64,000 nucleotides of DNA from Thermoplasmata archaeon (GCA_021844945.1 JAKBSJ010000003.1:32565-96564); one strand, 5' to 3'; positions 14,548 to 59,628 are shown, numbered from the stretch's first letter. A program made the numbers and translations. Notes: generated by a model not told the origin, from the letters alone.

Positions 14548-14913
14548 ATGGATGCCGGCGTAACGACGTTCCTCGTCTTCGCGCTCGTTGCCGTTGCCTT
14601 CGCCGTCGGGTCGATCACGATGAACCGCACGCTCGGTGCGAAGCGTCGCCGTTCCTACCTCCAGCTCACGACGTACGAGTGCGGGGAAGAGGCCGAGGGA
14701 GAGGCTCAGATCGACTTCCCTACCCAGCACTACACCTTCGCGATCGTCTTTGTCGCCGTCGACGTGCTGGGGTTCATCCTGGCCCTGTGGGCCCTCACGT
14801 TCCGCGGGCTCAACTCCGGCCTCTTCCCGGTCCTGATTGCCTTCGGCTTCGCCGGGCTCGCGATCGTCGGAATCTACTACGCGCTCAGCGGCGAGCGCCG
14901 GTGGGTCGTATGA
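14548..14913 (+). CDS. nuoA: NADH-quinone oxidoreductase subunit A
   Basis: It is a 121-aa, 3-TM protein containing ECGEE, the NuoA/ND3 motif. Confidence 0.85.
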
Positions 14914-15515: not shown

Positions 15516-15545
15516 CACGGGGATCCGGGCGTTCGTCCAGAGCAT

Positions 15546-17157: not shown

Positions 17158-17166
17158 GACAGAATC

Positions 17167-18294: not shown

Positions 18295-18312
18295 GGAGGA
18301 GGGTTCACGGTC

Positions 18313-19580: not shown

Positions 19581-19903
19581 CGACTCTTTCGATCGACGGC
19601 TTCATCGGCCTCTCGATCGCGCTGCTCGCGATCTCGATCTTCGGGATCCTCACGCGCCGGAACTTCATCCTGCTCCTGATCTCGGTCGAGATCGGGATGA
19701 ACGCCGCCATCCTCAACTTCCTCTTCTTCGCGGCCTTCCCGAACCGGAGCCCGTTCTTCGACGGGCTTCAGGGACAGTCGATTGCGATCGTTCTCGTGGG
19801 CCTCGCGGCGACCGAGGTCGCGGTGGGGCTCGCGATCGTGCTCGCATTGAACCGATTGAAAGGAACCATCAACGTCGCCGAGGCGTCGAGCCTCCGGGAA
19901 TAG
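19577..19903 (+). CDS. nuoK: NADH-quinone oxidoreductase subunit K
   Basis: It is about 108 aa and ND4L-like (LLLISVEIGMNAAILNF, with the conserved Glu). A GTG at 19577 overlaps the nuoJ stop (GTGA). The gene is absent as a separate ORF in the track; it sits in the tail of the 19190-19903 frame. Confidence 0.75.
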   Translation: MTTLSIDGFIGLSIALLAISIFGILTRRNFILLLISVEIGMNAAILNFLFFAAFPNRSPFFDGLQGQSIAIVLVGLAATEVAVGLAIVLALNRLKGTINVAEASSLRE

Positions 19904-19916
19904 GAGGAGGAACCGA

Positions 19917-21932: not shown

Positions 21933-21936
21933 GCCG

Positions 21937-23406
21937 ATGAGCGTACCGCTGATCAGCATCACGCTCGCATCACTCGCCGTAGGAACGGTCGCGACGTTCC
22001 TCGCCGGCCGCTATGCGCGCTGGGTCGCGCTCGGAACGTCGCTCCTCTTCCTCCTCGAGATCGGACTGATGTTCTGGGGCTATTCGTGGCCGGGGTTGCT
22101 GAATGGGATCCCCCAGTTCGCCTTCTACGAATCGCACGCGTGGATCTCGATCGGTTGGCTGAACATCAACTACACCGTCGGGGTCGACGGGATCTCGCTG
22201 GTGATGATCCTCCTGACGGGGATCCTCCAGATCGCGACCGTGATCTACACGTGGAACGAGCGGAACCGGCCCGGGGCATGGTTCGGCCTCGTGCTGCTCA
22301 CGTGCCTCGGATGCTTCGGAGTGTTCGTCGCGCTCGACATCCTGTTCTTCTTCCTATTCTGGGAGGCCGTCCTCGTGCCGATGTTCTTCATCATCGGCTA
22401 CTGGGGTGGCCCGAACCGACGCTACGCTGCGATCAAATTTTTCGTGTACACCCACGTCGCGAGCATCGTGATGCTCGTGGGGCTCTTGGCCCTCGCTTTC
22501 TACTCTCACGCCGCTTCGCTCGACTTCGCCGCGGTGTACGCGGCGGAGCCGGCGCTGACGGGCGTCGTTCCGGCGTTCCTGTTCCTGGCGCTTTTCTTCG
22601 GTTTCGGCGTCAAGTTCCCGATCGTTCCGTTCCATACGTGGCTGCCCGACGCGCATGTCGAGGCCCCGACCGGCGGATCTGTGCTGCTCGCGGGACTGCT
22701 GCTCAAACTCGGAGCGTACGGGCTGATCCGGTGGGGCGTGGAGGTGATCCCGAACGGCTTCCACACGGACACGCCGCTGCTGCTCATCATCGCGTTCATC
22801 TCGATCATCTGGGGCTCGGTCCTCTCGCTCAGCCAGCGGGATCTGAAGCGGATGGTCGCCTACTCGTCGATCAATCACATGGGCATTGTCCTGCTCGCGA
22901 TCGCGCTCAACAGCGAGCTCGGGCTCGTGGCCGCGCTGTTCCTGATGTTCGCCCACGGTATCGTAAGCGCGCTTCTCTTCATGACCGCGGGGAGCACGCA
23001 CGACATCTACGGGACGCGCGACATCCCCAGCCTCGGAGGGACTGCGAGCGCCACGCCCCGCTTAGCGACGGCGATCATGATCGGGAGTCTGGCCTCTTTG
23101 GGTCTTCCGGCGCTGATCAGCTTCCCGGCCGAATTCACCGCGCTGCTCGCCACCTGGCAGGCGATCACGTACTGGGTCCTGATCCCGCTGATCGTCCTCG
23201 TCGTGACCGCCGGATTCTACATCTGGATGATGCAACGCGTCCTGTTCGGTCCCCCGAAAGGAATCCCGAACCCGGTCCACGATCTCCCGACCCTCGAGGT
23301 GATCGCGATGGGGATCCTCCTCGCTTTCACGGTCCTGTTCGGGGTTTTGCCGAACCTGCTCGTCCATTGGATCGTGATGTCGCCGGTCGGAGTGTGGCCG
23401 CTGTGA
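21937..23406 (+). CDS. nuoM: NADH-quinone oxidoreductase subunit M (antiporter-like)
   Basis: It is 489 aa, ND4-like, with WLPDAHVEAPTGGSVLLAGLLLKLGAYGLIR. Confidence 0.9.
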   Translation: MSVPLISITLASLAVGTVATFLAGRYARWVALGTSLLFLLEIGLMFWGYSWPGLLNGIPQFAFYESHAWISIGWLNINYTVGVDGISLVMILLTGILQIATVIYTWNERNRPGAWFGLVLLTCLGCFGVFVALDILFFFLFWEAVLVPMFFIIGYWGGPNRRYAAIKFFVYTHVASIVMLVGLLALAFYSHAASLDFAAVYAAEPALTGVVPAFLFLALFFGFGVKFPIVPFHTWLPDAHVEAPTGGSVLLAGLLLKLGAYGLIRWGVEVIPNGFHTDTPLLLIIAFISIIWGSVLSLSQRDLKRMVAYSSINHMGIVLLAIALNSELGLVAALFLMFAHGIVSALLFMTAGSTHDIYGTRDIPSLGGTASATPRLATAIMIGSLASLGLPALISFPAEFTALLATWQAITYWVLIPLIVLVVTAGFYIWMMQRVLFGPPKGIPNPVHDLPTLEVIAMGILLAFTVLFGVLPNLLVHWIVMSPVGVWPL

Positions 23407-23419
23407 TCGGAGGTACTCG

Positions 23420-25072
23420 ATGTCCCTGATCGCCACGGGGCTGGACTTCCTCCCGGAGATCCTGCTGCTCGCCGGTGCGTTGCTCGTCTTCCTGATGGAC
23501 GCGGTGGGGATCCGGCGGATCGAGGTCGTCGGATCGATCGCGGTCGGCGCGATCCTCTTCGCGATGCTCCTCGTCTTCGCCGACCTCGGGTTCGCCCCGG
23601 TCGCCTTCCTCGCGACGATCCCGCGGAGCCAGATCGACATCGTCCCGGCCGTGGGATCCACGCCACTGTACTGGTTCACGAGCCTCGGGCTCTTCTTCCA
23701 GGTCTTCTTCCTAATCGCGGCGTTCCTCGTCGCGCTCGCCTCGATGAGCCGGCCCTCGCGCGAGCGGGGCGCGGCGGTGTTCTACGGCATGATACTGCTC
23801 GCGACGCTCGGCATGATGCTGGTCGCGGTCGCGAGCGATCTCATCTTCCTGCTGATCGCGATCGAGGTCGTCAGCATCCCCTCCTACCTCCTGGTCGCGT
23901 ACACTCGGCGCGACGCTCGCTCGATGGAGGCGGCGATGAAGTTCTTCATCGTCGGAGCGCTGTCGACCGTCCTCTCGTTCTTTGGCGCCTCCTTCCTATA
24001 CGGCGCATACGGCACGACGAACCTCTTCGTCCTTGCGTCGGGCAGCGCCATCAGCAACGGGGCGTTCGGGGGCGGAGGCTTCCCGCTCCTGGTCGTGATC
24101 GGCTACTGCCTATTGATCGCGGGCCTCGCGTTCAAGATCACGCTCGTTCCGTTCCACGCGTGGGCGGTCGATGTCTACGACGGAGCCCCGGACGACGTCT
24201 CGGCGTTCTTAGCCGGCGGAACGAAGAAGATCGGCCTCTTCGCGTTCTTCCTCGTCTTTCTGGGACCGGTTCTCCTGGTCCGAGGGACGGTCGAGTTCCA
24301 GTGGTTCGGCGGCATCGGAGCGGTAGCCCTCGGCCCGGTTCTCCAGGTCGTGCTGAGCATCCTCGCGGTCGTGACGATGACCGTGGGCAACGTGCTCGCC
24401 CTGATGCAGAAGAGCATGAAACGGATGCTCGCCTATTCGTCGATCAGCCAGGCCGGATATATGTTCATCGGGATCGCGATCGGCACGGCGCCGGCGCTCA
24501 CCGGAGCGAGCCTCCAGGTCTTCGCGCACGTCTTCATGAAGACTGGAGCTTTCCTCGTCGTCGCAGCCGCCGCCGGGCTCGGGGTCGGGCCGCTTATCGC
24601 CGATTGGCGCGGGATGGGACAGAGGCACCCCTGGCTGAGCGTGGCGTTCGCCCTCATGCTCCTGAGCCTCGCGGGCGTCCCACTGACGATCGGTTTCTTG
24701 TCAAAGTTCGTCCTCTTCAGCGCGGCGATCGAAGCGCAGGGGTACTTCGTCTGGCTCGCGGTGGCCGGACTCCTGAACAGCGCCCTCAGCGTCTTCTACT
24801 ACGGGCGGGTCCTGAAGGTAATGTACTTCGATGCGCCCGAGAGGGGACCCGTCATACCGACTTCTACGGAGGCGAGCGTCCCGTCCCCCGGCGCTCCGAA
24901 CGGACGGGGGGCCGTTTCCGCCATCGGACTCGGCGCCGGTGGCATCGGCTACGCTCGTGCCACGACCATCGCCCTCATCGCGATCGTGATCGTAGCCCTT
25001 GGAGTGTATCCGGGCCCGCTTCTCCAGCCTCTCGCGGCCGCCGCTCAGCATTTCGTCAACCTCGCGTTCTAG
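23420..25072 (+). CDS. nuoN: NADH-quinone oxidoreductase subunit N (antiporter-like)
   Basis: It is 550 aa, ND2-like, with FHAWAVDVYDGAPDDVSAFLAGGTKKIGLFAF. Confidence 0.9.
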   Translation: MSLIATGLDFLPEILLLAGALLVFLMDAVGIRRIEVVGSIAVGAILFAMLLVFADLGFAPVAFLATIPRSQIDIVPAVGSTPLYWFTSLGLFFQVFFLIAAFLVALASMSRPSRERGAAVFYGMILLATLGMMLVAVASDLIFLLIAIEVVSIPSYLLVAYTRRDARSMEAAMKFFIVGALSTVLSFFGASFLYGAYGTTNLFVLASGSAISNGAFGGGGFPLLVVIGYCLLIAGLAFKITLVPFHAWAVDVYDGAPDDVSAFLAGGTKKIGLFAFFLVFLGPVLLVRGTVEFQWFGGIGAVALGPVLQVVLSILAVVTMTVGNVLALMQKSMKRMLAYSSISQAGYMFIGIAIGTAPALTGASLQVFAHVFMKTGAFLVVAAAAGLGVGPLIADWRGMGQRHPWLSVAFALMLLSLAGVPLTIGFLSKFVLFSAAIEAQGYFVWLAVAGLLNSALSVFYYGRVLKVMYFDAPERGPVIPTSTEASVPSPGAPNGRGAVSAIGLGAGGIGYARATTIALIAIVIVALGVYPGPLLQPLAAAAQHFVNLAF

Positions 25073-25081
25073 GGGGCACCG

Positions 25082-26182
25082 ATGGAACGCTACGACGTCG
25101 TGGTCGTAGGCGCGGGACCCGCGGGCTCGTGCGCGGCACGGGCGGCCGCCGGGTCCGGTGCGCGTACTCTCTTCGTGGACCGACGTCCCGAGCTCGGCCA
25201 TCCGGTCCAGTGCGGGGAGTTCCTGCCGACCCCGGAAGAGCTCGGGGACATCTTCGACGCGCCACAGCTCATCCACCGGGGATTCGAGGTCCCCAAGGAG
25301 TCGATCCTGCGTGCGACGCGTGCGATGGTCTGTGTCTCCCCCTTCGGCCATCGCTTTCGGTTCCCGCTGTCGGGCTACACGGTCTCCCGTCGCGCGTTCG
25401 ATAAGGCGCTTGCCTACCGCGCGGAGTCGGAGGGAGCCGAGCTGCGCCATCCGGTCGGGGTCACAGGGGTCGACGGCGCGACGGTGCGTTTCGCGAACGG
25501 TACCCGGGTGGAGGCCGGGGTGATCGTAGCCGCGGACGGCCCTCTCAGCACCGTCGGCCGCTCTCTCGGGTATGCTCCCCCGCGAGAGATGTTCCGGATG
25601 ATCACCGCAACGGTCGATTCTGTCTTCGAGGATGAGATCGAGCTCTTCTTCGGCCGGGTCGCCCCCGGCGGCTACGCATGGGCATTTCCGCGTGCGGACG
25701 ACCTCAACGTGGGCCTCGGGATCGACTCTCGCTCATCAGGGCTCGGCCTCGACCGCCTCCTGGATAAGTTTGTCCGCAGCGCCGATCTCGCCCCAGCGCA
25801 CGACCGCACGCGCTGGTGGGTCCCGATCGGGCCACCACCCGAGCGCCTGAGCGCCGGACGGATCCTCTTCGCAGGAGATGCCGCGAACCTCGTCATGGCG
25901 ACGAACGGGGGGGGAATCCCGACCGCCATGCTCAGCGGCTGGCTCGCGGGGGAGGCGGCCGCCGCCCACGTACGGCAGGGAACCCCGCTGTCCGAGTATG
26001 ATCGCGCGGTCACCGAGGCGATGGCGGTCCCGCTCGCCCGGGCATACCGGATCCAACGGGCCACCGAGCGGGTTGCCCGCTCCAACGTCGTATTGGCGCT
26101 GGGAATGCGCTATATTGGCGCGGCCGGTCTCGACGAGGTGATGCGCCTGCGCTGGCCGGCGCGTCTCGGAAGGAACTCATGA
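25082..26182 (+). CDS. Geranylgeranyl reductase-family FAD-dependent oxidoreductase
   Basis: YDVVVVGAGPAGSCAA is the FAD-binding motif. LFAGDAANLVMATNGGGI is typical of the GGR family. It lies immediately after nuoN. Confidence 0.85.
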   Translation: MERYDVVVVGAGPAGSCAARAAAGSGARTLFVDRRPELGHPVQCGEFLPTPEELGDIFDAPQLIHRGFEVPKESILRATRAMVCVSPFGHRFRFPLSGYTVSRRAFDKALAYRAESEGAELRHPVGVTGVDGATVRFANGTRVEAGVIVAADGPLSTVGRSLGYAPPREMFRMITATVDSVFEDEIELFFGRVAPGGYAWAFPRADDLNVGLGIDSRSSGLGLDRLLDKFVRSADLAPAHDRTRWWVPIGPPPERLSAGRILFAGDAANLVMATNGGGIPTAMLSGWLAGEAAAAHVRQGTPLSEYDRAVTEAMAVPLARAYRIQRATERVARSNVVLALGMRYIGAAGLDEVMRLRWPARLGRNS

Positions 26183-27234
26183 GCAGCTCTCCGCCCGGGG
26201 ACGGAGCCGAAGCGTCGTTCGAGTCGCTGGTCGCGCAGTCCATCGGAAACGAACCGCTCGGCCGGCTGACCGACCTCCTGCCGGTGCTGGGCCGGGATCT
26301 CTCGGAGATCGATTGGCGCATCCAGGAGATCCTCGGCGCCCGCTACGCGACACTGTCGGAGTCGGCCCAGTACGCGACCCAGATGGGCGGTAAGCGGGTT
26401 CGACCGCTCCTGATGTCCGCCTACTACCGCGCGCTGGGCGCGAGCTCGACCGAGCGAATCCACGCCCTCGCCGCTGCCTTCCAGCTGATCCACACTGCGA
26501 GCCTCGTGCACGACGACGTCATCGACCACTCCGACACCCGCCGCGGCCGGCCGTCCATGCCGCGGGCCTACGGAGTTCCCTTGTCGATCGTGACCGGGGA
26601 CTACCTCTTCGTGCGCGCGTTCGAGCTGGCGGCGGAGTATCCCCGGTCGGTCATCCTGAGGTGCGGGGAGTCCTGCGCGGACCTCGTCGAGGGCGAGGTA
26701 CTCCAGGAAGCCGGTCGCTTCGAGCTCTCCGTAGGGAAGGAGCACTACTTCCGGGTCGTGGAGCGCAAGACCGCCGCGATCGTCGCCGCCGCGCTCGCCT
26801 CATGCGCCGAACTCATGGGGCTGGACGCCGAGGGGATCGAGGCTGCGACGACCTTCGGCGCCTCGCTCGGCATCACCTTCCAGATCCGCGACGACATGCT
26901 CGACGTGTTCGGCGACCCCGACCTGATGGGCAAACCCCTGTACGCGGACTTCCGGGAGGGGAATCCCACGCTCGTCTCGCTCGAGACCTACGCCCGGCTC
27001 GACGGAAAACGCCAAGCTGAGTTCGAGCGGATGTTCCAGCTCCGCCGCAAGGGAGCGCGTCACCTACTCCGCATGCGCGAGCTTGCCGAGGAGGCCGGTG
27101 CCGAAGCGGTCGTAGGCGAACAGGCGCTCTGGTGGGCCGAGCGCGCCGTCCGGGCCCTCGATAGTTTGCCCGAGGGCCCGTACCGTGCCTTGCTCGAGCG
27201 GATCGCTCGGACCGTTGCTGGGCGCCGCGCGTGA
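26179..27234 (+). CDS. trans-Polyprenyl diphosphate synthase (isoprenoid-quinone side-chain type)
   Basis: The first DDxxD motif is LVHDDVIDHSDTRRGRPS and the second is FQIRDDMLDVFGD. It is coupled to the upstream GGR gene. Confidence 0.85.
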   Translation: MSSSPPGDGAEASFESLVAQSIGNEPLGRLTDLLPVLGRDLSEIDWRIQEILGARYATLSESAQYATQMGGKRVRPLLMSAYYRALGASSTERIHALAAAFQLIHTASLVHDDVIDHSDTRRGRPSMPRAYGVPLSIVTGDYLFVRAFELAAEYPRSVILRCGESCADLVEGEVLQEAGRFELSVGKEHYFRVVERKTAAIVAAALASCAELMGLDAEGIEAATTFGASLGITFQIRDDMLDVFGDPDLMGKPLYADFREGNPTLVSLETYARLDGKRQAEFERMFQLRRKGARHLLRMRELAEEAGAEAVVGEQALWWAERAVRALDSLPEGPYRALLERIARTVAGRRA

Positions 27235-49236: not shown

Positions 49237-50145
49237 CTACCGCGGAGCGCCCGGTCGACGGCTTCCGACATAGAGGAGGGATATAAGCACGACCGCCACG
49301 AAGGCGACCACGCCGAGCACGTAGTAGTCCGTGTAGTTCGCGGGCGGACCTTCCACGTAGAACGTGATCGAGTAGCTCTGCTGGCCGTTCGCGAAATGGA
49401 CCTGGCCATGGGGGGAAGGTAAGGTCAGGACGAATGTATGGTACCCCGGACCCAGCGGGAGCGTGGTGTAGTCGAAGGTGAAGTTGTACACTTCCTTGGG
49501 AGTGAGGGTCGGAATCGTGATCGCGCCGACGACCGTTCCGTCCAACGTCACCGGGATGGCGAACGAGAGCACCGTCTGGGCACCCGCGACGACCTTTCCC
49601 GTAAGGATGTAGGGTGCCACCACGCGGACCGTGATTGTGACGTTCAACGACTCGTTGAGCTGCTCGTAGCGCGACGCGAACTCGACCGTGATCGTCACGG
49701 TCTGGACGATCCCGCTGGTGTCGAGCTCGACCGGATAGCCGGACGTCGAGTTCGGGACCGTTCCCGTGCTCGGCAGAAAGCTGACCGACGTGGTGTTGGT
49801 CCCCGCGACCGACGCCCAATAGGTGATGTTCCCGACCTCCGTTCCGTTGGCCGCGTACGCCGGGCCCCCGTGGGCCATCAGTACGTACTCGAAGGTCTTG
49901 TTCTGCCCGACGACCTTCGGCCCCGTGACGTTCGCCTTGAGCGGCGAGTAGCTCGAAGACAGGCTCGTTAGGAAAGGACCCGATCCCATGGAGCGGGAGC
50001 CGGAGGGCGCCGTAACGGAGGCGGCGGAGCCCACGGGGGTCGCCGAGATCGCGAGGAGGGCGACCACACCGAGGGCGAACGCCACGGCGAGAGCATGGGA
50101 ACGGCTCACCAACGCCGCCACCTCCGCGTGCGGTTCCACCGCCAT
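49237..50145 (-). CDS. Sequon-rich secreted/membrane-anchored protein (putative N-glycoprotein), about 302 aa
   Basis: The N-terminus has a signal-like hydrophobic segment (ALAVAFALGVVALLAISA). It carries about 10 N-x-S/T sequons (NVT, NKT, NGT, NIT, NTT, NST, NES, NFT, NYT). There is a C-terminal TM helix plus a basic tail. The start MAVEPHAEV is chosen; its 5' end overlaps the aglB 3' end by 40 nt. Confidence 0.6.
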   Translation of the reverse strand: MAVEPHAEVAALVSRSHALAVAFALGVVALLAISATPVGSAASVTAPSGSRSMGSGPFLTSLSSSYSPLKANVTGPKVVGQNKTFEYVLMAHGGPAYAANGTEVGNITYWASVAGTNTTSVSFLPSTGTVPNSTSGYPVELDTSGIVQTVTITVEFASRYEQLNESLNVTITVRVVAPYILTGKVVAGAQTVLSFAIPVTLDGTVVGAITIPTLTPKEVYNFTFDYTTLPLGPGYHTFVLTLPSPHGQVHFANGQQSYSITFYVEGPPANYTDYYVLGVVAFVAVVLISLLYVGSRRPGAPR

Positions 50146-53100
50146 ACGAGGATGATCGCCCCAACGACGAGCGTGGGGACGAGGGCCAGCACGATCAGGA
50201 GCCATTCCGCGTATACGACCGGGGCGGTTCCGGTGCCGGGACCGGTGACGATCGTGTATGGGTTGACGGTCACGGTCGTGGACGGGATCGAGAAGGTCAG
50301 GGTCTGTTGCGAGTTCAACGACTCGTTGAGGATCGTCACCGCCACCTCTGCGGTCGCCGGCGGGACGGCGATCGCGCCGGAGGTGAGGTTCAGGGCGAAC
50401 GCTTCGCTCGCCCCCGGCGAAACCGAGTAGGTAGTGACGACGGTGCGGCCCTGGAGGATGTTCGATGTCCATCCGAGGCTGGCGAGCTGCGGTGCATCGA
50501 CCACACTGAGCCGAAGACCGATCACCGCGTTGCCGACGTTGTCGACGGAGAAGAGAATCTCGACCTGGTGCGGCCCCACGGACGGCGCCGTGGCGCTGCT
50601 CTCGAGCACCATCGCGTAGCGGGGCGCGATATGAATCGTTGGGGTGTCCGCGATGGTTCCGATGGCCGTGCCGTTGGCGGTCACGACCGTGAGATAGAGC
50701 GGCGGGTGGGTGACGGCGGTTCCGGCGGGAACGATCACGCGGACGGCCCCGCTCGCGGTCGCCCCGGGGGAAAGGCTGACGTCGGTGAGCGTCGTCGTCA
50801 TGTTCCAGTACGCGGGGCTGGCGATGAGCGAAACGGTAACCGGGACATTTCCGGTGTTCGTTAGGCCCACACTGAAGTCAACCGGCCCTCCGTTCGCCGG
50901 AAGGTCGACCGAGGTCGGCCCCGAGACGGTCCCGGCGACGGAAGGTAGAAGCACCCACGCCAGGGAGAGTCGGGTCGCAGTGCTTCCCGATACGACTGCC
51001 ACCGATTGGGAAGCGGTTGCGTTGGACAGGACGGAATAGGGATATCCAGTGGCCCTCGCACCTAGGACGTAGCCGCCCGTGGGTAGCCAAACAGAGAGGG
51101 TCGAGCCCACGACGACGTTCGGGAACTCGAACACGACCCCTGCAGCGGACCGGACGGTCACGAGGGCGACGGAGCCGTTGACGATCCCCCCGGGGGGCAT
51201 GGGGGTGATCTCGTTCGGATAGCTCGGGGAGAGGGTCAGCGCGAACGGTCCGCTCTGAGGCAAGACCGTCACGCCGGTCAGCTCGGCCGCCCCGGTCGCG
51301 TTCGCATACACCGCGTACGCCCCCGGAAGGAGCTGCACCGAGAAGCGACCGTTCACGACCGAAACGGTGGACAGGGCGTAGGAGGGATACGGTCCTTCGA
51401 GGGAGAGCGTCGCCGAGGCGAGCCCGGGCGCCGCAACGGTCCCATTGAACCATACGAGCTGCGTCGTCCCGACCATCCGTACGTTGCAGGTGGCCCCCGT
51501 GCGGCCCAGCGCACACGTGTTCGCACCCGTGGCCGTGGCGTAGCTCACAGCATAAGACCCGTTCGGACCGACGACCGTCCCAATCGTCCGCGCGCTGACC
51601 GAATAGGTCGTCGAGGCCGCGAGCACGAGAGTGTAGTTGCCGTAGGCCGTGCGGGCCGCCGCGACCGCCCCGCTGGCCGTGGTGAACGTGACGGTCGTGT
51701 TTGCGATGATCGGAACGTCGGTCGCGGTCATCAGGCTCCCCGAGACCGTGACCCCGACCAGGCTCAACCGAAGCGGAGTCGAGATCGAGCCGGTGGTCGG
51801 GACCGAGATCACCGTCAAGTTGGTGTAGTTGAGACCGGCATGTGCACCAAAAAAGTAGGCAGAATACGTTCCGACCGGCGCGTAGAAGCCGCTTGTGTAG
51901 GCCGCGCCCGAGACCGTCAGGTTGAATCCGGTGGACCCGGTGAGTCGCAGCGTGACGGCAGAGGATGGCATGCCATTGGGCAACCGTAGGGTGCCGGTGG
52001 TGTTGCGCTCGCGCACGAGAGAAACGGCCTCGGTCACTTGGCTCCGCCCGAGCGCTACCGAGAACGACCCGCCCGGCGCACTCGAGTAGCGGGTCACGTT
52101 GGGCTCGCCCGGCGCGTAGGCCTGTACCGAGTACGTTCCCGGGGTGATCGTGAGCGAAGCCGACGAGTAGCCTTGAGCCACATACGTCCCAGCCGTGGCG
52201 CTCGTGCCGTTGAGGTAGATCGTGGTCAGGGTTGATGAGGTGGTCCCCGAAATCGGGAGCGTGAGCGTCACCGGGGCGAACGAAATCGGAAGGCGGCTCA
52301 CGCTCGGAAGGCTGCCTGGGGCGATGCACTCGCTCGCCGGCGAGTAACCGACCGCGCTTGCGCCGAGACAATAGGTCTCGTTGTCCGGTAGGGCGGCGGG
52401 GACTATGTACGAGACCGTTCCCGAGCTACCCGTGACCACCGGGACCGATGGGCCCCCCGAGATCCCTATTCGGATCGTCACGTTCGCGTTCGCCACTGGA
52501 TAGAGCACGCCGCTCGGAAGCGTCGCGCTGACGGTGAACGTCGTGCGCACCGCGGTCACCGGGACGATCGTCACCGAAGTGGGGCCGCTCACCGCGACCG
52601 ACTGAAGCGCCGCGTACAACGACGACGAGCTGCCCGAACCCGCCTGTAACGTGAGCAGGGAGTACGTGCCAGAGGGGAGCGCCAGGGAAAAAGAGCCGTT
52701 CGTGGCCACGGCGGTGACGTTTCCTTGGGCGTCGTAGGCGAAAACGACGCTCGACGCTCCGACGCCCGCCCCGCTATTGCGGACTGTTCCCGTGAGCCAG
52801 TTGGCCGGCGCGAGCTCGAGGGTAGGGACCGGAACCGGCGCCCCGGGGCTACTGACGCGGAACGTGCCCAAGGCCGTCTCGAGCCCAGCGCCGACGTACG
52901 TGGACGCGTAGGCGGTGTAGTTGCCCAGCGGCAGATAGGCGCTGGCCGAACCGACCGAGTTCGTGTAGAGGACGGTGGAGTTCTCGAGGGCGCTCGAGAG
53001 CGATGCGACGCTCGCGCTGCTGCCGAAGTTCGGTAGCGAAGTGAGGCGGATCGGAGTGTTGGCGACCGGAGCACCGGCGGCGCTCACGGTGAGGGTGGCG

Positions 53101-56100
53101 AGGGCGCTGGGGTACTCCGTCAAGTTGATCGAAAGCTTGGCACCGATCTCGCTGATGACGGTGGTCGTGCCCAGGGAACGCATGTTCGCTCCGGGCCCGA
53201 CCGCGGTGATCGTGTAGTTGCCGGGGCTGAGGTTCGGTATGTCATAGGTACCGGTCAGGTTCGTCGTCGTGGTGAGGACCCGGCCCGTGCTCGATCCGAT
53301 CGTGACGGTGGCTCCCTGGATCACGTCGCCGATCGCGTTGGTGACCCTGCCGGTGATATTCCCGGGCGTCAGGCCGAAGCTCGCGTTCACGGGCGAGAGC
53401 GAAGAGTCAACGGTGATGTTTCCGGGAAGCGTGTAGTTCGTGCCATCGTACAGAACGGACTCGTTGTAGACGCCCGGGGCGACGTTGGAGAGCCGGAACG
53501 TCCCACCCGCATCCGTGGTGGCCGTGACCGCGGTACCGTTGGCGACGCCATAGAGGACGACCCGAGCGTCGGGGACTGGGAGATCGCTAGTTTGGTATAC
53601 CGTGCTGTTCGCGAGGTTCCAGTATACGAGTCCGTCGACCACCGAAGCTCCGACCGTGATCGTTCGCTGGACGGTGATCGGCTGGAGGCTGAAGCCGATC
53701 GCGTTCGGAACGGAAATCGGAATCGAGTCGAGGAGGATGTTCCCCTGTTGGGTGATACCGTTGAGGGTGCCGATCGTGACGTTCACCGTGTCGTTGCCCG
53801 GGGGAAGGATGACCGAGTACTGGCCCTGCGGGCCCGTGATCACACTCATGTGCGGGATCCCGAACTCGTCGTTGACCGTCACGCGGGCGCCGGCGACGGG
53901 CGCGCCGTTCGGCAATGTCACCGTCCCGGTCATGGTCTCGCCGGAGTAGTACACGAGGATGGACTCGCCCCCGCTGAAGTAGTCGTTGGCGCTCGTGTTC
54001 GCCACGCCGATCCCGCTGCCGGCGAGCGCTTCGGCCTGCGGTTTGTTCATCGCGACGTAGCAATTCGAATTGCTCGCCCGGCTTGCGTTGTCGCAGTAGT
54101 AAGCGGTCTGATACTGGACCTCGAAATGGGACATCATCCAGCCGGGCATGACCGGGTCGGACGCGACGGATCCCTCGAGGCCCGGAATTCCAGTGCTCTT
54201 CCCGACCTGGGTGCCGTTGTAGCCAAAGTAGATGCGGTAGATCATCGAGTTGTAGAACGGCGCGAAGTAGGAGATGTAGTAGTTCACCGCGCTCACGCCG
54301 GCCGGAACCTCACCTTCGGGGTAGTACTTCCCGTTCGAGCCGAGCACGGTCACGTTGAAGTAAATCCCGGGGTTCCCGCCGGCATCCAGCCCGCGTCCCG
54401 TAAGATCGGCGGGGGCGTAGTAGATACCGGTGTCGGATCCCGAGAACGGGATCAAGCGCGTGTCGGCCATAGCGTATCGGATGGTCCAGCCCGTGTACTG
54501 TTGAACGTTGTTGTAGACCTGGGCGACGCCGTTCGGACTCAGCGCTCCCGCGATGTAGTAGGAAACGACCATGAACATCGCGTTCTCCGGCGTGAGCGTG
54601 GACGCGTCGACCGGGAGGTAGAGACCTGGATTTGCGACGACCGTCTTGTAATCCCAGCTCCAGTTCACGAGCGCGTTGTGCAGGTACGAGAGGTTCAGTC
54701 CCGCGGAGGCAAGCATCTGGTTGAGCGCGACGGGCAGGTATGGCAATCCCGACTTCGTCTGCTCACCGTTGAGCAAGGTCGTCGTCAGGACCCCGAGAGC
54801 GATCGACTGGTTCTGGGCGAGGAGGAATTGCCCGGACGGGTCGATGCCGTTCTGGAAGTCGTCGGCAACCGACGGGTGCTGGCCCTGATCGATCGTCTGG
54901 AACCCGTAATCCCACCAGGCCACGACCGCGGATCTATTAGGTTCGGGAACGGCCGTTTGCTGTTGAGCTAACCAATTGTATCCGGCGGAATCGTAGAGGT
55001 TCGGGGTGTCGAGCGATGCGCCGGTCGCACCGAAGTAGAAGCTGGAAGCATCGCTCGCGGCCGGCCGGAGCCACGAAGGGAACGTGTCGTAGACCTGCGT
55101 AGATGCCGCGGCCTTGGTATTGCTCGGGATACCCGCGTCGATCCCGTACCAGATATTGGGCACGAGAAGGCCCACGACGAGCAAGATGATGAGGATGTGA
55201 TGGGCTTTGAACGACTTGCGGAACGCCGTGAGCCGGCTGCGCGTGTCGGTCAGCGATCGCATGCTTTGACGCAGCTCGGAATAGCTCCCGAGGTCCCACA
55301 GACGGCGTACCGCCTCGGCCGGAAGTAGCGCGAACGCGGGGGACGCCAGCAACAGGAACTTCGACGCCGAGATGGGGAGGTAGACCGAGAGAACCCCGAA
55401 AATGAGGATGACGAGCAGCCATCGCTGCCGGAAGCGGCCCTTTGCGAGAGCCCAGGCGATCAGCGCGAGGCCGACGAAGGCTAGGAAGAACGTGATGACC
55501 CCGAAGGCGATGACCAAAGTGTCGAAGGACGGCGAGACGTCCTCGGCGACGGTCGAGTAGATCAGTGTCTTGATGAAGTAGCCCTGTCCGGTGACGATCG
55601 CGGTGAAGTAGGCCGGATCGACCACCAACAACGCGGCCATCGCCGCAACGACGAGGGCGACGAACGTCGGTATCGAGACGACCCAGGGGAGGTCCCGCAT
55701 CATCATGAACGGGATCAAAATGATCAACGCGCCGAAGAACAGCAAGAGCGGAAGGTCGAACCAACTGATGAAATCCCCCTGGACGTAGTAGTACGGCATC
55801 GCCATCGGGAAGCCGACCAGCCCGACGATGGCGGTCGCGACGTACAGCCCGAAGGAATCCACGCGGCGGACGCGTTCGATGAGGACCATGAGGACGAGGA
55901 ACACACCGATGACCGCGACGCCGTACGTGTAGCCCTGCCACGCAAGGGCGAGCGCTCCGAACGTCACTCCGGTAAACACGGCCCACTTTACCGCGGTGCG
56001 CTCGCCCCGCAGGAAACCAACTAAACCGCTGTAGATCGACCGTGGGCTCCGGTAACTCTCGACCCAGCGACGCGAGCCCACGGACTTAACGGTGCGAATG

Positions 56101-56651
56101 TAACAATAGATCAGGACGAGGATGATGAATGTGTAGAAGCTGAGGTAGTCGGCATACCCCCAGATCGACTCGCTGATGCTCGCCGGCAAGAACGGGAAGA
56201 TCATCGCGGCGATCAGGCCCGTGCGTCGGTCGCCGACCTCCCGGCCGATCAGATAGATCGGGAACACGCTCAGGGCCGCCCAAAGGGGAGACTGGAGGTT
56301 TAGGAAGAACGCTCCTGCTTCCTGGGCATTGCCGCCGAAGAACGGGGCGAAGAGGATCCCCAGGATCGCGTTCATCCAGTCGAACAGCGGCTCCCGGGGG
56401 TTGATCGCGCCGACCGGGTACTTGAGCAACGGATCGACGATGAGGTTCGTGTGATTCAGTATGATGTACTGCATCACGCGGGAGTGGTAGTACGAGTCGG
56501 AGCCGCCGGCGTAGACGTAAAGGTTACCGAACTGTTGGATGATCGGATAGACGAACTCCGTCCGGATCAAGAAGGCGAGCGAAAATGCGAGCAGCAGGAC
56601 AGCGATGGTCCAGAAGTGGCGGCTCCACCACCCTTTTGAATCGTTGTCCAT
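50106..56651 (-). CDS. aglB: Giant oligosaccharyltransferase AglB/STT3 (2181 aa) fused to a long sequon-rich beta-sandwich repeat region
   Basis: The N-terminal approximately 900 aa form a polytopic STT3 domain with the WWDYG motif (VVAWWDYGFQ). The C-terminal approximately 1280 aa carry carboxypeptidase-regulatory/Ig-like repeats (e.g. GTVTLPNGAPVAGARVTVND...GQYSVILPPG) with dozens of N-x-S/T sequons. The protein ends in a TM helix and RRWRRW. Confidence 0.9.
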   Translation of the reverse strand: MDNDSKGWWSRHFWTIAVLLLAFSLAFLIRTEFVYPIIQQFGNLYVYAGGSDSYYHSRVMQYIILNHTNLIVDPLLKYPVGAINPREPLFDWMNAILGILFAPFFGGNAQEAGAFFLNLQSPLWAALSVFPIYLIGREVGDRRTGLIAAMIFPFLPASISESIWGYADYLSFYTFIILVLIYCYIRTVKSVGSRRWVESYRSPRSIYSGLVGFLRGERTAVKWAVFTGVTFGALALAWQGYTYGVAVIGVFLVLMVLIERVRRVDSFGLYVATAIVGLVGFPMAMPYYYVQGDFISWFDLPLLLFFGALIILIPFMMMRDLPWVVSIPTFVALVVAAMAALLVVDPAYFTAIVTGQGYFIKTLIYSTVAEDVSPSFDTLVIAFGVITFFLAFVGLALIAWALAKGRFRQRWLLVILIFGVLSVYLPISASKFLLLASPAFALLPAEAVRRLWDLGSYSELRQSMRSLTDTRSRLTAFRKSFKAHHILIILLVVGLLVPNIWYGIDAGIPSNTKAAASTQVYDTFPSWLRPAASDASSFYFGATGASLDTPNLYDSAGYNWLAQQQTAVPEPNRSAVVAWWDYGFQTIDQGQHPSVADDFQNGIDPSGQFLLAQNQSIALGVLTTTLLNGEQTKSGLPYLPVALNQMLASAGLNLSYLHNALVNWSWDYKTVVANPGLYLPVDASTLTPENAMFMVVSYYIAGALSPNGVAQVYNNVQQYTGWTIRYAMADTRLIPFSGSDTGIYYAPADLTGRGLDAGGNPGIYFNVTVLGSNGKYYPEGEVPAGVSAVNYYISYFAPFYNSMIYRIYFGYNGTQVGKSTGIPGLEGSVASDPVMPGWMMSHFEVQYQTAYYCDNASRASNSNCYVAMNKPQAEALAGSGIGVANTSANDYFSGGESILVYYSGETMTGTVTLPNGAPVAGARVTVNDEFGIPHMSVITGPQGQYSVILPPGNDTVNVTIGTLNGITQQGNILLDSIPISVPNAIGFSLQPITVQRTITVGASVVDGLVYWNLANSTVYQTSDLPVPDARVVLYGVANGTAVTATTDAGGTFRLSNVAPGVYNESVLYDGTNYTLPGNITVDSSLSPVNASFGLTPGNITGRVTNAIGDVIQGATVTIGSSTGRVLTTTTNLTGTYDIPNLSPGNYTITAVGPGANMRSLGTTTVISEIGAKLSINLTEYPSALATLTVSAAGAPVANTPIRLTSLPNFGSSASVASLSSALENSTVLYTNSVGSASAYLPLGNYTAYASTYVGAGLETALGTFRVSSPGAPVPVPTLELAPANWLTGTVRNSGAGVGASSVVFAYDAQGNVTAVATNGSFSLALPSGTYSLLTLQAGSGSSSSLYAALQSVAVSGPTSVTIVPVTAVRTTFTVSATLPSGVLYPVANANVTIRIGISGGPSVPVVTGSSGTVSYIVPAALPDNETYCLGASAVGYSPASECIAPGSLPSVSRLPISFAPVTLTLPISGTTSSTLTTIYLNGTSATAGTYVAQGYSSASLTITPGTYSVQAYAPGEPNVTRYSSAPGGSFSVALGRSQVTEAVSLVRERNTTGTLRLPNGMPSSAVTLRLTGSTGFNLTVSGAAYTSGFYAPVGTYSAYFFGAHAGLNYTNLTVISVPTTGSISTPLRLSLVGVTVSGSLMTATDVPIIANTTVTFTTASGAVAAARTAYGNYTLVLAASTTYSVSARTIGTVVGPNGSYAVSYATATGANTCALGRTGATCNVRMVGTTQLVWFNGTVAAPGLASATLSLEGPYPSYALSTVSVVNGRFSVQLLPGAYAVYANATGAAELTGVTVLPQSGPFALTLSPSYPNEITPMPPGGIVNGSVALVTVRSAAGVVFEFPNVVVGSTLSVWLPTGGYVLGARATGYPYSVLSNATASQSVAVVSGSTATRLSLAWVLLPSVAGTVSGPTSVDLPANGGPVDFSVGLTNTGNVPVTVSLIASPAYWNMTTTLTDVSLSPGATASGAVRVIVPAGTAVTHPPLYLTVVTANGTAIGTIADTPTIHIAPRYAMVLESSATAPSVGPHQVEILFSVDNVGNAVIGLRLSVVDAPQLASLGWTSNILQGRTVVTTYSVSPGASEAFALNLTSGAIAVPPATAEVAVTILNESLNSQQTLTFSIPSTTVTVNPYTIVTGPGTGTAPVVYAEWLLIVLALVPTLVVGAIILVWRWNRTRRWRRW

Positions 56652-56700: not shown

Positions 56701-56708
56701 TATAAATA
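56701..56708 (-). promoter_or_regulatory. Candidate TATA box (TATAAATA / palindromic-like) upstream of aglB
   Basis: It is an AT island about 50 nt upstream of the aglB start, in GC-rich DNA. Confidence 0.35.
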
Positions 56709-56756: not shown

Positions 56757-57311
56757 TCAGTCGACCGTGCGGAATCGATAGAAGACCCGGCCATCGGCCA
56801 AAGGGAGCGGCTCGACGCGAACCGCGCTTCCTATGTCCAATTCCTTCCACGGCCGACCGTCGATCCGGCCGAAGATGCGGAGCGGAACTCCATCCAGGTC
56901 GACCAGGCCGACGGCGAACGGAACGTCGGACTCCATCCCGAGCGGCGCGCCGGCAAGCACCGCGCTGAACGCGTAGATACGCCCGGTCGAAGGGAGGTCG
57001 ATCCACTCGAGATCCTCCGCATGACATGCGGGACAGGCGACGCGCGGCGGCCAGTGGAGGGCTCCGCAGCGTGGGCACCGCGTAGTGCAAAGAAGCCCTT
57101 CCTTCAATCGCTCGAAGAACCGGGCGAGCCGAGTCTGATCGGGCCCTTCCAGAGGGAAGAAGTCGAGGAGGAATGGGGTGGTGGCGGCCGGAGGCGCTTT
57201 CCCAGGGTCGCGCTTCTCGGCGACCGAGGATCGCTCCGTCACCGGTGGCGGTGCCTTCGCCGTTGCTTCCTCGGGCGGTGTGTCGCGGCGCGCCTTGGTC
57301 GTCGCGGACAT
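56757..57311 (-). CDS. DUF35 OB-fold / Zn-ribbon protein (thiolase-associated)
   Basis: The Zn-ribbon is CPRCGALHWPPRVACPACH. It is followed by the OB-fold (GRIYAFSAV...VGLVDLDG). The gene is ATGA-coupled to the thiolase. Confidence 0.85.
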   Translation of the reverse strand: MSATTKARRDTPPEEATAKAPPPVTERSSVAEKRDPGKAPPAATTPFLLDFFPLEGPDQTRLARFFERLKEGLLCTTRCPRCGALHWPPRVACPACHAEDLEWIDLPSTGRIYAFSAVLAGAPLGMESDVPFAVGLVDLDGVPLRIFGRIDGRPWKELDIGSAVRVEPLPLADGRVFYRFRTVD

Positions 57312-58498
57312 CAGCTCGCTCTTCCTCCCTCGTAGATCATGATCGAGTGCACGTTCGCGCTCCCCGAGAGGTTGTGCACGAGACCGTAGCGCGGGTCCGG
57401 CGCTTGGCGGCTCGGTGGCACTTGATGGGAGAGCTGCTGGAAGATCTCAACCGATTGGGCGATCCCCGTGGCTCCGAGAGGGTGGCCGCAACCTAGGAGG
57501 CCTCCCCTCGGGTTGACGACGACGTCGCCGCCAACATCCGAGCGGCCATCGAGGACGAACTTTCCTCCTTCGCCGCGGGGACACCAACCGAACGCCTCGT
57601 ACTCGACGATCTCGGAAATGGAGAAGCAGTCATGGATCTCCGCCACGTCGATGTCCTGGATCGTGAGTCCGGCACGGCCGAGAGCTTCGCGCGCCGCATG
57701 GGTAAGTCCCTTCCAGTCGGTGAGGGGGCCCGCATGTGCGAGATTGTGGAAGTCCGAATACTGGCCGGTTCCTCGGATCCATGCGGGGGAATCGGTGTAC
57801 CGGTACGCGCGATCCTCGGCGGCCAGGACCACCGCGGCCGCCCCGTCGGTCATGCTCGAGCAGTCCCCGAGGCGCAGCGGAGGCGCGACGACCGGAAGCC
57901 GCGCCAGTTTCGCCCGGTCGAAGGTCTTCGAGTAGAACTGGGCGTGCGGGTTCGTGTTCGCGAACCGGTGGTTCTTGACCGAGACTGCAGCCAGCTGTTC
58001 CTCGGTGGTTCCGTACTCGCGCATGTGGCGCTGGGCCACCATTGCGAAGAACGGGGGTGCGGTCGCGCCGTGGGGTCCGTCCCAGGCGCGGTCCATGACA
58101 CATCCCATCGAAGTGTTCGCCTCGGCCATGGACGGGAGGTTCATCTTCTCGATGCCAACGGCGACGGCCACATCCGAAAGCCCAGCGGCGATCGCAGCGT
58201 ACGCGGATCGGATCGCCGACTGCCCGGAGGCGCAGGCGAGCTCCGTACGCTGGAGGATCCGATGTGGGGTGAGACCCATCTGCTCAGCGGCGAGCGGAGC
58301 CACATGGGACTGGAAGGCGAAACGCTCGGGCTCGGCCGCTCCGACGAACAGCGAGTCGACATCCTCGCTGCGCAGCTCGGGTTCGGCTCGGAACAGCGCG
58401 GCTCCGATCTCCTGCGCCATCTCGCTCCACGTGGTGGGCCGGACGCCGAACGGCGTCGTCGCGCCCGCGACGATCGCCACCCTACGGACCGCGCTCAT
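57311..58498 (-). CDS. Thiolase-family acetyl-CoA C-acyltransferase (archaeal/SCP-x type)
   Basis: LACASGQSAI places the catalytic Cys. NPRGGLLGCGHPLGATG is the C-terminal thiolase signature. Confidence 0.9.
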   Translation of the reverse strand: MSAVRRVAIVAGATTPFGVRPTTWSEMAQEIGAALFRAEPELRSEDVDSLFVGAAEPERFAFQSHVAPLAAEQMGLTPHRILQRTELACASGQSAIRSAYAAIAAGLSDVAVAVGIEKMNLPSMAEANTSMGCVMDRAWDGPHGATAPPFFAMVAQRHMREYGTTEEQLAAVSVKNHRFANTNPHAQFYSKTFDRAKLARLPVVAPPLRLGDCSSMTDGAAAVVLAAEDRAYRYTDSPAWIRGTGQYSDFHNLAHAGPLTDWKGLTHAAREALGRAGLTIQDIDVAEIHDCFSISEIVEYEAFGWCPRGEGGKFVLDGRSDVGGDVVVNPRGGLLGCGHPLGATGIAQSVEIFQQLSHQVPPSRQAPDPRYGLVHNLSGSANVHSIMIYEGGRAS

Positions 58499-59628
58499 CT
58501 TCGCTCGCCCCTCAGGGCTGCGGCTACACTGTCGCCGGCCTCGCTCGTCGTCGTCGTGCCACCTTGATCATAGGTTCTCGCCGTGCCGGCCGCCAGCACG
58601 GAGGCGATCGCACGCTCGAGCCGGTCCGCCTGCGCGAGGAGCCCAGGGTCCGCGCGCTTGTCCCCAAGATAGCGGAGCATCATCTCGATGGCGAAGAAGG
58701 TTGCGAACGGGTTCACCTGATTCTTGCCCGCATACTTGGGCGCGCTACCGTGGACCGGCTCGAACATCGCGTGCCGATCGCCGATGTTCCCCCCGGCGGC
58801 GAATCCCATTCCGCCTTGGAGGACGCTCGCGAGGTCCGTGATGATGTCGCCCATCATGTTCGTCGCGACGACGACATCGAAGTGCTCGGGGTTCCGCACG
58901 AGCCATTGAGTGAACGCATCGACGTACGCGTAATCGCGATCGATCGTCGGAAACTCGGGCGCGACGCGGTCGTAGGTCTCCCGGAAGAAACGACACCCCT
59001 CCATCACGTTGGACTTGTCCACGCACGTGAGACGTAGGTGTCGGTCCTCGGGCGCGCCGCGAGATCTTCGCACTGCGAGCTCGAACGCGCGTCGGATCAC
59101 ACGCTCCGCTCCTTTGCGGGTGATCAAGCGCGTGTCGACCGCGACCTCGGTATCCCCCCCTCGCGAGAGCCGACCGTGAAGGGGAGCGTAGAGGTCTTCC
59201 GTGTTCTCCCGGACGAGGACCATGTCGACCTTCTCGGGGGACCAGACTTGACGGTACTCCCCGCTGATGCGATGAACCACGCCCGGATACAGGCGGCACG
59301 GGCGCACGTTCGCGTACAGGTCGAGCTTGGAGCGCATCCCCAGAACGAGGGCCGCACCCGCGATGTTTCCATCCGGGAGCGAGACGCCGGGCCAGCCGAC
59401 GGCTCCCAGCAGGATCGCATCCGCTCGCTCGGCGGCCTCTTCTCCTTCGGGCTCCCATTCGCGCCCGGTCTTCTGATAGTACTGCGCTCCCCCGGGATAG
59501 TCGGTCAGGTGCCAAGCGGCGCGTCCGTTCTCGCCCAGCGCAGCGAGGACCTTCTCTCCCTCGCGGATGACCTCGGGCCCCGTGCCATCCCCGGCGTAGA
59601 CCGCGATCTCGCTGGCGGCGGACCTCAT
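58495..59628 (-). CDS. leuB: 3-isopropylmalate / homoisocitrate dehydrogenase family (beta-decarboxylating)
   Basis: IAVYAGDGTGPEV, LVRENTEDLY and ATNMMGDIITDLAS match the LeuB/Icd family. Confidence 0.85.
   Translation of the reverse strand: MRSAASEIAVYAGDGTGPEVIREGEKVLAALGENGRAAWHLTDYPGGAQYYQKTGREWEPEGEEAAERADAILLGAVGWPGVSLPDGNIAGAALVLGMRSKLDLYANVRPCRLYPGVVHRISGEYRQVWSPEKVDMVLVRENTEDLYAPLHGRLSRGGDTEVAVDTRLITRKGAERVIRRAFELAVRRSRGAPEDRHLRLTCVDKSNVMEGCRFFRETYDRVAPEFPTIDRDYAYVDAFTQWLVRNPEHFDVVVATNMMGDIITDLASVLQGGMGFAAGGNIGDRHAMFEPVHGSAPKYAGKNQVNPFATFFAIEMMLRYLGDKRADPGLLAQADRLERAIASVLAAGTARTYDQGGTTTTSEAGDSVAAALRGERR

Follow-up and report, generated by a model that had tools for sequence, protein, structure and literature searches.

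A giant AglB-type oligosaccharyltransferase of an uncultured Thermoplasmata archaeon, with a sequon-rich beta-sandwich extension predicted to be anchored in the membrane at both ends

The stretch of DNA analysed here, referred to as the window, comprises 64,000 nucleotides (nt) from an uncultured Thermoplasmata archaeon (GCA_021844945.1 JAKBSJ010000003.1:32565-96564) and has a GC content of 66%. On its minus strand lies a gene for a 2181-amino-acid (aa) protein with features of the archaeal oligosaccharyltransferase (OST) AglB, followed directly by a smaller gene, named here the partner gene (Table 1). The AglB gene starts with ATG and continues through 2181 codons without an internal stop, and its GC content at third codon positions (GC3) is 0.84 throughout, as in other credible genes of the window. 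From the N-terminus, the giant protein consists of a polytopic STT3 core, an external globular domain, thirteen beta-sandwich domains numbered D1 to D13, and a C-terminal transmembrane (TM) helix with a basic tail. The beta-sandwich part, called the extension, is rich in sequons, defined as N-x-S/T with x other than P. An earlier reading of the window made from the sequence alone (the sequence-only reading) had placed the open reading frame (ORF) at the same borders and with the same length, and these are exact as given; the assignment to the minus strand is an addition of the present analysis.

Table 1. Positions in the window of the giant AglB gene, its modules, the partner gene and surrounding features
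Feature	Position	Strand	Basis
Giant AglB ORF, complete, 2181 aa and TGA	50106..56651	-	ORF reading, GC3, more than 120 full-length homologues
Polytopic GT-C/STT3 membrane core, residues 1-505: D52, D168-Y-L, T367-V-A-E370, R410	55137..56651	-	Pfam STT3, hydropathy, AlphaFold2 (AF2), profile, Foldseek
Second metal motif site, residues 168-170	56142-56150	-	
External globular domain, residues 506-897: invariant C853/C864, 4 sequons at least 90% conserved (614, 663, 766, 812)	53961..55136	-	
WWDYG catalytic motif, residues 579-583	54903..54917	-	invariant in 56/56 sequences
D1-D11, eleven CarboxypepD_reg/prealbumin-like beta-sandwich domains, residues 898-1899; most sequons; invariant Cys pairs C1428/C1442 and C1713/C1722	50955..53960	-	
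D12-D13, two CARDB/NEW3-like beta-sandwich domains, residues 1900-2125; NTGN/NVGN motifs	50277..50954	-	
Linker, 14th TM helix and predicted cytoplasmic tail WRWNRTRRWRRW, residues 2126-2181	50109..50276	-	
14th TM helix, residues ~2149-2169	50145-50207	-	
Predicted cytoplasmic tail, residues 2170-2181	50109-50144	-	
Partner gene, 290 aa: signal peptide, beta-rich ectodomain, 10 sequons, C-terminal TM and basic tail; GTG start overlaps AglB TGA (GTGA)	49237..50109	-	
TATA-box-like tatttata, 50 nt 5' of the AglB ATG, in the 105-nt gap after the DUF35 gene	56701..56708	-	read from sequence
Thiolase and DUF35-type gene directly 5' of AglB	56757-59628	-	
Co-oriented gene run	14548-27234	+	ORF and hydropathy statistics
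Three roughly 14-TM proteins within this run	19917-25072	+	

Database searches disclosed over 120 homologues of full length (2168-2211 aa), which are 47-96% identical to the window protein and cover 99-100% of it. They are entered in NCBI as carboxypeptidase regulatory-like or STT3 domain-containing protein (Thermoplasmata archaeon), and in JGI as glycotransferase. The alignment of 56 sequences is almost free of indels, its 2266 columns barely exceeding the protein length of about 2190 aa. These data bear on the possibility that a sequencing or assembly error has fused a normal AglB to a separate surface-protein gene downstream. Such an error would account for the unusual length, the only feature in its favour, and long spurious ORFs do arise in high-GC DNA. 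The homologues, however, have the same length and come independently from NCBI, JGI, ENA and Logan assemblies, while the ORF is continuous in 80 of the 80 best genome loci and in most metagenome loci. Uniform GC3 along the whole ORF and the presence of a giant form in the complete genome of Thermoplasma volcanium GSS1 speak in the same sense, and an artefactual fusion deserves hardly any credence. Absence of frameshifts and internal stops, as reported in the sequence-only reading, is confirmed; the split into a normal AglB and a surface protein, which that reading regarded as fatal to its claim, was not seen in the homologues. Several related records (L093, L160, L003, L070, P0134, P0141) stop early or enter out-of-frame Arg/Pro-rich sequence and, devoid of the terminal TM helix, resemble products of frameshift or misassembly rather than natural short forms.

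In the catalytic part (residues 1-897), Pfam STT3 matches residues 47-447 with 36.1 bits (cutoff 24.5), and an AglB_core-like match in residues 550-618 stays below the cutoff (about 21.6-24.9 bits vs 27). The NCBIfam model TIGR04154, archaeo_STT3 of the archaeosortase A system-associated type, scores 216.1 bits over residues 16-813 with a cutoff of 450; by this score the giant AglB is related to the subfamily but is not a member. A single-sequence search against PDB sequences gave marginal matches only, and a diverse STT3-only profile built from relatives was used instead. This Thermoplasmatota profile matches Archaeoglobus fulgidus AglB-L (AfAglB-L) with E 2e-40 along residues 6-594 of that chain. 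In the alignment, D52 falls on D47 (GGSD52SYYH vs GGND47PWYY), which places the first acidic, DXD-type motif of external loop 1, T367-V-A-E370 falls on T357-I-A-E360, the TIXE/SVSE-type motif of external loop 5, and WWDYG579-583 falls on WWDYG550-554. In addition to WWDYG, residues D52, T367, A369, E370 and R410 are invariant in all 56 aligned sequences. AfAglB-S2's C-terminal domain (3vu0) matches the external globular domain (E 2.4e-10).

Hydropathy at a strict cutoff yields 9-10 TM segments in residues 1-505, and helices in the AF2 model together with homology indicate the usual 13 TM helices in the STT3 core. The model of residues 1-1000 has a mean predicted local distance difference test score (pLDDT) of 69, with values below 50 near WWDYG and in parts of 727-767. 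Its best PDB match in Foldseek is AfAglB-L (7e9s, 3wak; E 3.5e-17), followed by eukaryotic STT3 and PglB. A candidate for the DK or MI motif, which forms the Ser/Thr(+2) pocket, was noted by eye only, outside the hidden Markov model (HMM) alignment: DTRLIPFSGSDTGIYYAP (D730...I743) is similar to the variant DK region found in AfAglB-L, Ile standing in the place of Lys618. Five of seven defining features were found, and the giant is, by the descent read from these alignments, an AglB/STT3 oligosaccharyltransferase, in agreement with the normal N-terminal AglB/STT3 core with WWDYG proposed in the sequence-only reading. Homology further suggests that it transfers glycan to Asn of N-x-S/T.

The second metal motif site departs from the canonical form. 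The D161-H162-H163 triplet of AfAglB-L aligns with D168-Y169-L170, and the corresponding residues are N-Y-L in 53 of 56 close homologues, Asp being present only in the window protein and two close relatives. Leu occupies the third position in all 56 sequences. Elsewhere, D-H-D is found in most other Thermoplasmatota giants, and SDGRMH or TDGRAH in the Thermoplasmatales-type ones. As a separate observation, E87 in NPREPLFDW is invariant in the clade of the window protein and is replaced by Pro (NPRPP) in most distant relatives examined; P0126 and P0128, which also have N-Y-L, carry Ala at this position.

Replacement of this motif raises the question of whether the main function of the protein is structural, in a coat or in adhesion, in which case a catalytically dead or altered STT3 part would be a membrane anchor recruited from an enzyme. 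The low score against the NCBIfam archaeal STT3 model and the uncertainty of the AF2 model around WWDYG could be read in the same way. On the other hand, in the more distant members of the homologue set the STT3 core is the most conserved part (63-66% identity, compared with 54% in D1 and 26-45% in D4-D13). With conservation highest in the catalytic part, a coat protein without catalysis is unlikely. D52, E370, R410 and WWDYG do not vary, the canonical DHD is kept in most other Thermoplasmatota giants, and no second STT3 gene was found in the 64-kb window or in the loci examined, nor was a second WWDxG-encoding frame found in the window. Furthermore, N-glycosylation has been established experimentally in Thermoplasmatales (PMC11407970, PMC12448462). 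Taken with these observations, loss of the enzyme is clearly improbable, and a catalytically competent OST remains the preferred reading.

Residues 898-2125 form the extension. In AF2 predictions it is composed of 13 beta-sandwich domains of 81-132 residues each, including D1 (898-1000). The model of residues 982-2181 (mean pLDDT 85.3) is all-beta, followed by a low-confidence linker and one long helix. Pfam CarboxypepD_reg matches the extension in 4 stretches (E 2.5e-31). When scored by domain against the PF13620 threshold of 32.3 bits, D1 (43.9), D2 (40.8) and D3 (56.0) pass, and D5, D6 and D10 remain below it with 16.7-21.9 bits. Comparison by hhalign links D1-D11 into one homology network (probabilities 58-97%), while D12 and D13 pair with each other only. 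D12 reaches 19.2 bits with NPCBM_assoc (cutoff 24.4), D13 is without a match, and the region of both gives a weak choice_anch_T match. The CARDB-like label of D12-D13 is a resemblance only, the fold and the NTGN motif being compatible with CARDB/NEW3; NTGN-type motifs of these two domains also occur in distant giants. Carboxypeptidase-regulatory-like beta-sandwich repeats had already been recognised in the sequence-only reading, which had also proposed domain scans and fold prediction over the 2181 aa. Both bear the repeats out: STT3 and CarboxypepD_reg were found and the homologues conserve them, in place of the lack of domain hits and conservation that would have spoken against the claim.

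Thr, Val, Ser, Ala and Gly abound in the extension, which contains 0.1% Lys and 3.5% Asp plus Glu. Two invariant, closely spaced Cys pairs lie within it and a third is located in the globular domain; the extension domains are predicted to be disulfide-bonded. The predicted template modelling score (pTM) of 0.58, obtained for a 1200-residue chain of 12 small domains (model m6c20a0b63a42), exceeds expectation for flexible beads on a string, and suggests, as far as the model goes, fixed packing between the beta-sandwich domains. No assembly resembling the modelled extension was found in the PDB. Alpha-2-macroglobulin and related thioester proteins, the top Foldseek hits of the extension, were rejected as relatives: no helical thioester domain is present, TM-scores do not exceed 0.11, and the four extension Cys residues reside in YCLG, ECIA, TCAL and TCNV, not in CxEQ. 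The extension showed no enzyme fold, thioester motif or lectin family.

Of 47 sequons in the giant AglB, 37 are located in residues 881-2130, compared with 15.5 +/- 3.3 expected from composition-preserving shuffles (z 6.4). This agrees with the several dozen sequons noted in the sequence-only reading. The feature is general in the family, since 55 homologues carry 31-49 sequons (mean z about 8) and enrichment was detected in 20 of 22 diverse giants with z 5-14. Eleven sequon positions are conserved in at least 90% of sequences, and another 21 in 50-90%. Conserved sites in the repeats include N953, N957, N1015, N1072, N1089, N1145 and N1736. The extension is therefore a candidate for heavy N-glycosylation, as predicted from these counts, and the array may owe its glycosylation to AglB itself, acting in cis or in trans. 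Self-glycosylation together with a scaffold role of the giant AglB is plausible.

The C-terminal TM helix has a Kyte-Doolittle value of 3.06 and is followed directly by the basic tail, just as the sequence-only reading had it. Across the loci the C-terminus keeps the pattern ...FVPAIAL..G...YRWWRTRRWTRR. The tail is retained more tightly than a generic positive-inside anchor requires: R2171, R2176, R2177 and W2178 are invariant in 56 sequences, and distant lineages have only generic Lys/Arg-rich tails. Searched at E<=10, neither the last 62 nor the last 282 residues matched a model of an archaeosortase-type sorting signal, and an anchor of the archaeosortase/PGF-CTERM type was ruled out.

In a 13-TM GT-C enzyme the external domain is on the extracellular side, and the positive-inside rule holds for the tail; both points together would place residues ~506-2148 in the extracellular space, tethered at both ends. 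The invariant close Cys pairs of the extension also speak for an outside location. With both ends in the membrane, the extension must form a loop or arch, not a free-ended stalk. The ectodomain is thus predicted to be a doubly anchored arch on the outer face, and the idea of an extracellular stalk, put forward in the sequence-only reading as a point for fold prediction, gives way to it. Content of Asp plus Glu in the extension follows habitat, with 2-5% in soil and acidophile lineages and 11-20% in marine ones, as expected of a surface exposed to the medium. By arithmetic, and not by measurement, a hairpin of 13 domains, with ~3.5-4 nm for each, would extend to about 20-25 nm.

The partner gene follows AglB directly and codes for proteins of ~250-290 aa with a signal peptide, sequon-rich beta structure and a C-terminal anchor, annotated as hypothetical; the partner in the window gives a weak CARDB match. 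A 4-nt overlap of its start with the AglB stop (GTGA or ATGA) was seen at 51 of 67 genome loci, and in almost all others the start lies within 7 nt. A partner-like ORF of 246-286 aa was also detected within -4 to +15 nt of most complete AglB genes in 80 metagenome loci with Thermoplasmatales-type giants, in which AglB identity to the Ferroplasma-type query is 25-64%. An HMM built from partners in the window clade recognises 44 of 45 distant downstream ORFs (E 1e-110 to 1e-9). In the window, the partner is the only other sequon-rich ORF. Conserved throughout the phylum and coupled in translation, this gene had been missed in the sequence-only reading and is added here. Translated together with AglB, the partner probably represents a second subunit. 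Its derivation as a paralogue of the AglB C-terminus (D12-D13-TM) was rejected, with an hhalign probability of 6%.

Presence of the partner leads to an alternative in which the array, the 14th TM helix and the partner fill the role of Ost1/ribophorin I, Wbp1/OST48 and Swp1/ribophorin II, making the giant an OST complex in one chain. The additional parts would then keep nascent unfolded substrate or lipid-linked glycan close to the active site, and would dock the enzyme to the Sec translocon. The layout fits, the STT3 core being joined by beta-sandwich domains on the outside and by additional single TM anchors, and a phylum-wide, translationally coupled partner implies a hetero-oligomer. D1 is the best-conserved repeat (its GIPH motif is present phylum-wide), as expected if it is packed on the catalytic domain, and both the partner gene and the high conservation of D1 are compatible with this alternative. 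However, Pfam scans at E<=1 produced no ribophorin, OST48 or Swp1 match, none of those subunits is among the top 50-60 fold hits listed, and similarity to NOMO concerns the shared CarboxypepD_reg domain type only. In addition, far fewer than 13 domains would suffice for contact with an active site located at the membrane surface, and D4-D13 diverge quickly. We regard the one-chain complex as possible, with the odds well against it, and retain the arch as a scaffold as the preferred interpretation.

The giant form is not restricted to the closest relatives of the window protein. In GTDB, at least 578 species genomes encode a relative, and the best 80 of these are metagenome-assembled genomes of soil, peat or sediment Thermoplasmata, including Candidatus (Ca.) Lutacidiplasma silvani. 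An exhaustive search with the STT3 part only yielded 264 clusters at E<=1e-30, most of them still 2000-2800 aa long at identities down to 29%, with a few proteins of ~3170 aa and one complete variant of 1442 aa at the extremes, so that giants span 1442-3174 aa. The short entries examined do not have the C-terminal anchor, and at least one of them is flagged as partial by its source. As an illustration, giants of 2076, 2056 and 3174 aa were found in T. volcanium GSS1 (TVG1271204), Ferroplasma and Ca. Poseidoniales, respectively. They have the same layout, in which the STT3 core is followed by a GIPH-bearing first domain, a series of beta-sandwich domains with many sequons, two domains with NTGN and, at the end, a TM helix and a basic tail.

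Judged by these sequences, the giant two-anchor AglB is the standard form across the Thermoplasmatota, archaea without a cell wall. The window gene is an ordinary member of the giant AglB family, and the pattern of interest is that of the family. The comparison of AglB lengths in related genomes proposed in the sequence-only reading is answered by these giants of the same layout; its emphasis on exceptional size is correct as regards the characterised AglBs, which are shorter, but does not hold for Thermoplasmatota. Its suggestion of an OST/S-layer-type fusion finds no support: Pfam and NCBIfam scans of the giant AglB gave no match to an S-layer family, a sorting signal of the archaeosortase type was not detected, and the protein is also present in Thermoplasmatales, an order reported to have no canonical S-layer. 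No description of a giant AglB, of its second anchor or of the partner gene was found in full-text searches of the literature, although subscription papers may mention them.

Two structural variants were observed among relatives. The distant giants P0265 and P0267 (Ca. Poseidoniales, ~3170 aa) have about 350 extra polytopic residues at the N-terminus. In P0155, P0158, P0195, P0216 and P0248, a hydrophobic insertion of 100-250 aa separates the STT3 core from the external domain, and in the search these proteins gave 2-3 separate matched stretches.

The closest structurally known relative, A. fulgidus AglB-L (868 aa; PDB 3WAK/3WAJ/5GMY/7E9S), belongs to the same family and fold and shares the 13-TM core, the first acidic, the TIXE-type and the WWDYG motifs, and the external domain. 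In contrast to it, the giant is 2.5x longer, has a 14th TM helix in addition to 13 more domains of the beta-sandwich type, is predicted to be anchored at both ends, has D-Y-L instead of D-H-H in the second metal motif, and is accompanied by a co-translated partner gene. Three AglB paralogues of A. fulgidus range from 591 to 868 aa, and characterised AglBs vary by added peripheral beta domains (PMC3703281). Other AglBs have been used to complement an aglB mutant (PMC5131992). The homologues of T. volcanium (BAB60377.1 / WP_010917470.1 / UniProt Q979C6), Ferroplasma and Poseidoniales exhibit the same end-to-end architecture as the window protein and are uncharacterised entries. They share 29-35% identity with it in the STT3 part and differ in the number of domains and in the second metal motif. 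Furthermore, Thermoplasmatales-type giants are Asn-rich and those of Poseidoniales acidic. A conserved RWWRTRRW tail is peculiar to the window clade. Pyrococcus and Haloferax AglBs are about 970-1050 aa long. To our knowledge, structural and biochemical work on AglB has so far used forms of ~600-1000 aa, and the giant form has been present in sequence databases since the T. volcanium genome.

Similarity with the eukaryotic OST is one of analogy only. There, the catalytic STT3 is ringed by external beta-sandwich domains with TM anchors of their own, an arrangement that we take from known structures, entries 6EZN and 6S7O being among the fold hits of the giant STT3 part. In the giant, the domains are covalently joined with the catalytic chain and accompanied by one small partner, and no match to eukaryotic subunits was found in the Pfam scans or among the fold hits listed. 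Yeast STT3 is itself N-glycosylated. Strings of CarboxypepD_reg/prealbumin-like domains ending in a TM anchor, of type I, are also known in the nodal modulator NOMO, a subunit of the BOS complex (PDB 9C7V), and in Sulfolobus SlaB (PDB 8QOX_B), but these are without an enzyme and anchored at one end only.

Combining these results, we propose that the giant AglB is the OST of this archaeon in a two-anchor form with a scaffold or coat role, a reading to which we assign a probability of roughly 60%. The STT3 core of ~13 TM helices and the external globular domain would transfer a lipid-linked glycan to Asn of N-x-S/T on the outer face of the membrane. The chain would continue in the extracellular space with 13 beta-sandwich domains in tandem, of which 11 are CarboxypepD_reg-like and 2 CARDB-like, and the 14th TM helix with its cytoplasmic tail would tie it back to the membrane, giving the loop or arch. 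The small single-pass glycoprotein partner, co-translated from the overlapping gene, may act as a second subunit. Arch and partner together could serve as a built-in scaffold or spacer in a glycoprotein coat that replaces the S-layer, keeping the OST active site accessible and positioned within this coat.

Several points weigh against this proposal. Activity, glycosylation and shape are deduced from sequence and predicted structure. The external catalytic domain is poorly modelled around WWDYG, and the non-canonical second metal motif means that catalysis may differ or, less likely, be lost. Absence of a second, ordinary AglB covers the 64-kb window and the fetched loci only. Divergence is much quicker in the extension than in the core (26-54% vs 63-66% identity), which fits a generic spacer and gives no clue to specific binding. 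Finally, the arch geometry is derived arithmetically and not from model coordinates, and its match with a 20-nm layer takes the layer figure from other species. The layer in question was described in two Thermoplasmatales species, which have no S-layer and are covered by a dense unordered exterior protein layer of ~20 nm and unknown composition (PMC12448462). STT3 of Picrophilus torridus was reported among 30 proteins of an experimental secretome (PMC8345856). A bolder proposal would be that the Thermoplasmatota OST is a two-subunit, self-scaffolded surface machine, that arch and partner are a major block of the ~20 nm exterior layer, and that the enzyme is part of the coat it glycosylates; we put this forward tentatively and consider it doubtful.

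Genes surrounding the AglB gene do not include an agl gene cluster or a glycosyltransferase cluster, and the window is without a tRNA gene. Upstream, on the same strand, are a DUF35-type OB/zinc-ribbon gene, a thiolase, an isopropylmalate-type dehydrogenase, aconitase-type subunits and a homocitrate/isopropylmalate synthase-type gene, with the dehydrogenase preceding the thiolase and DUF35-type pair. The order of DUF35, thiolase and dehydrogenase, the three genes tested, is syntenic in 52-59 of 80 genome loci. Archaeal thiolase/DUF35 pairs belong to the entry complex of the mevalonate pathway, which makes isoprenoid and dolichol precursors. Neighbours further include leucine- or lysine-type biosynthesis genes, YdjM, SDRs, hydrolases and a Na/H exchanger. 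The tatttata motif is an AT-rich island inside the otherwise GC-rich intergenic gap; it resembles an archaeal TATA box and might be a putative promoter of AglB. At a distance from these genes, the co-oriented run with three polytopic proteins (Table 1) looks like an operon of the respiratory complex I type (nuo).

AglB is the near-universal enzyme of archaeal N-glycosylation, and the phylum that includes the cultured Thermoplasma and Ferroplasma and the abundant marine Poseidoniales uses a form of it that is 2-3x larger, has a conserved partner and is predicted to be anchored on either side of the ectodomain. The giant AglB is a candidate for the exterior layer of S-layer-less Thermoplasmatales, for which a 2025 electron cryotomography study requested proteomic identification. 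It would also represent a prokaryotic OST with built-in non-catalytic modules, in parallel to the multi-subunit eukaryotic OST.

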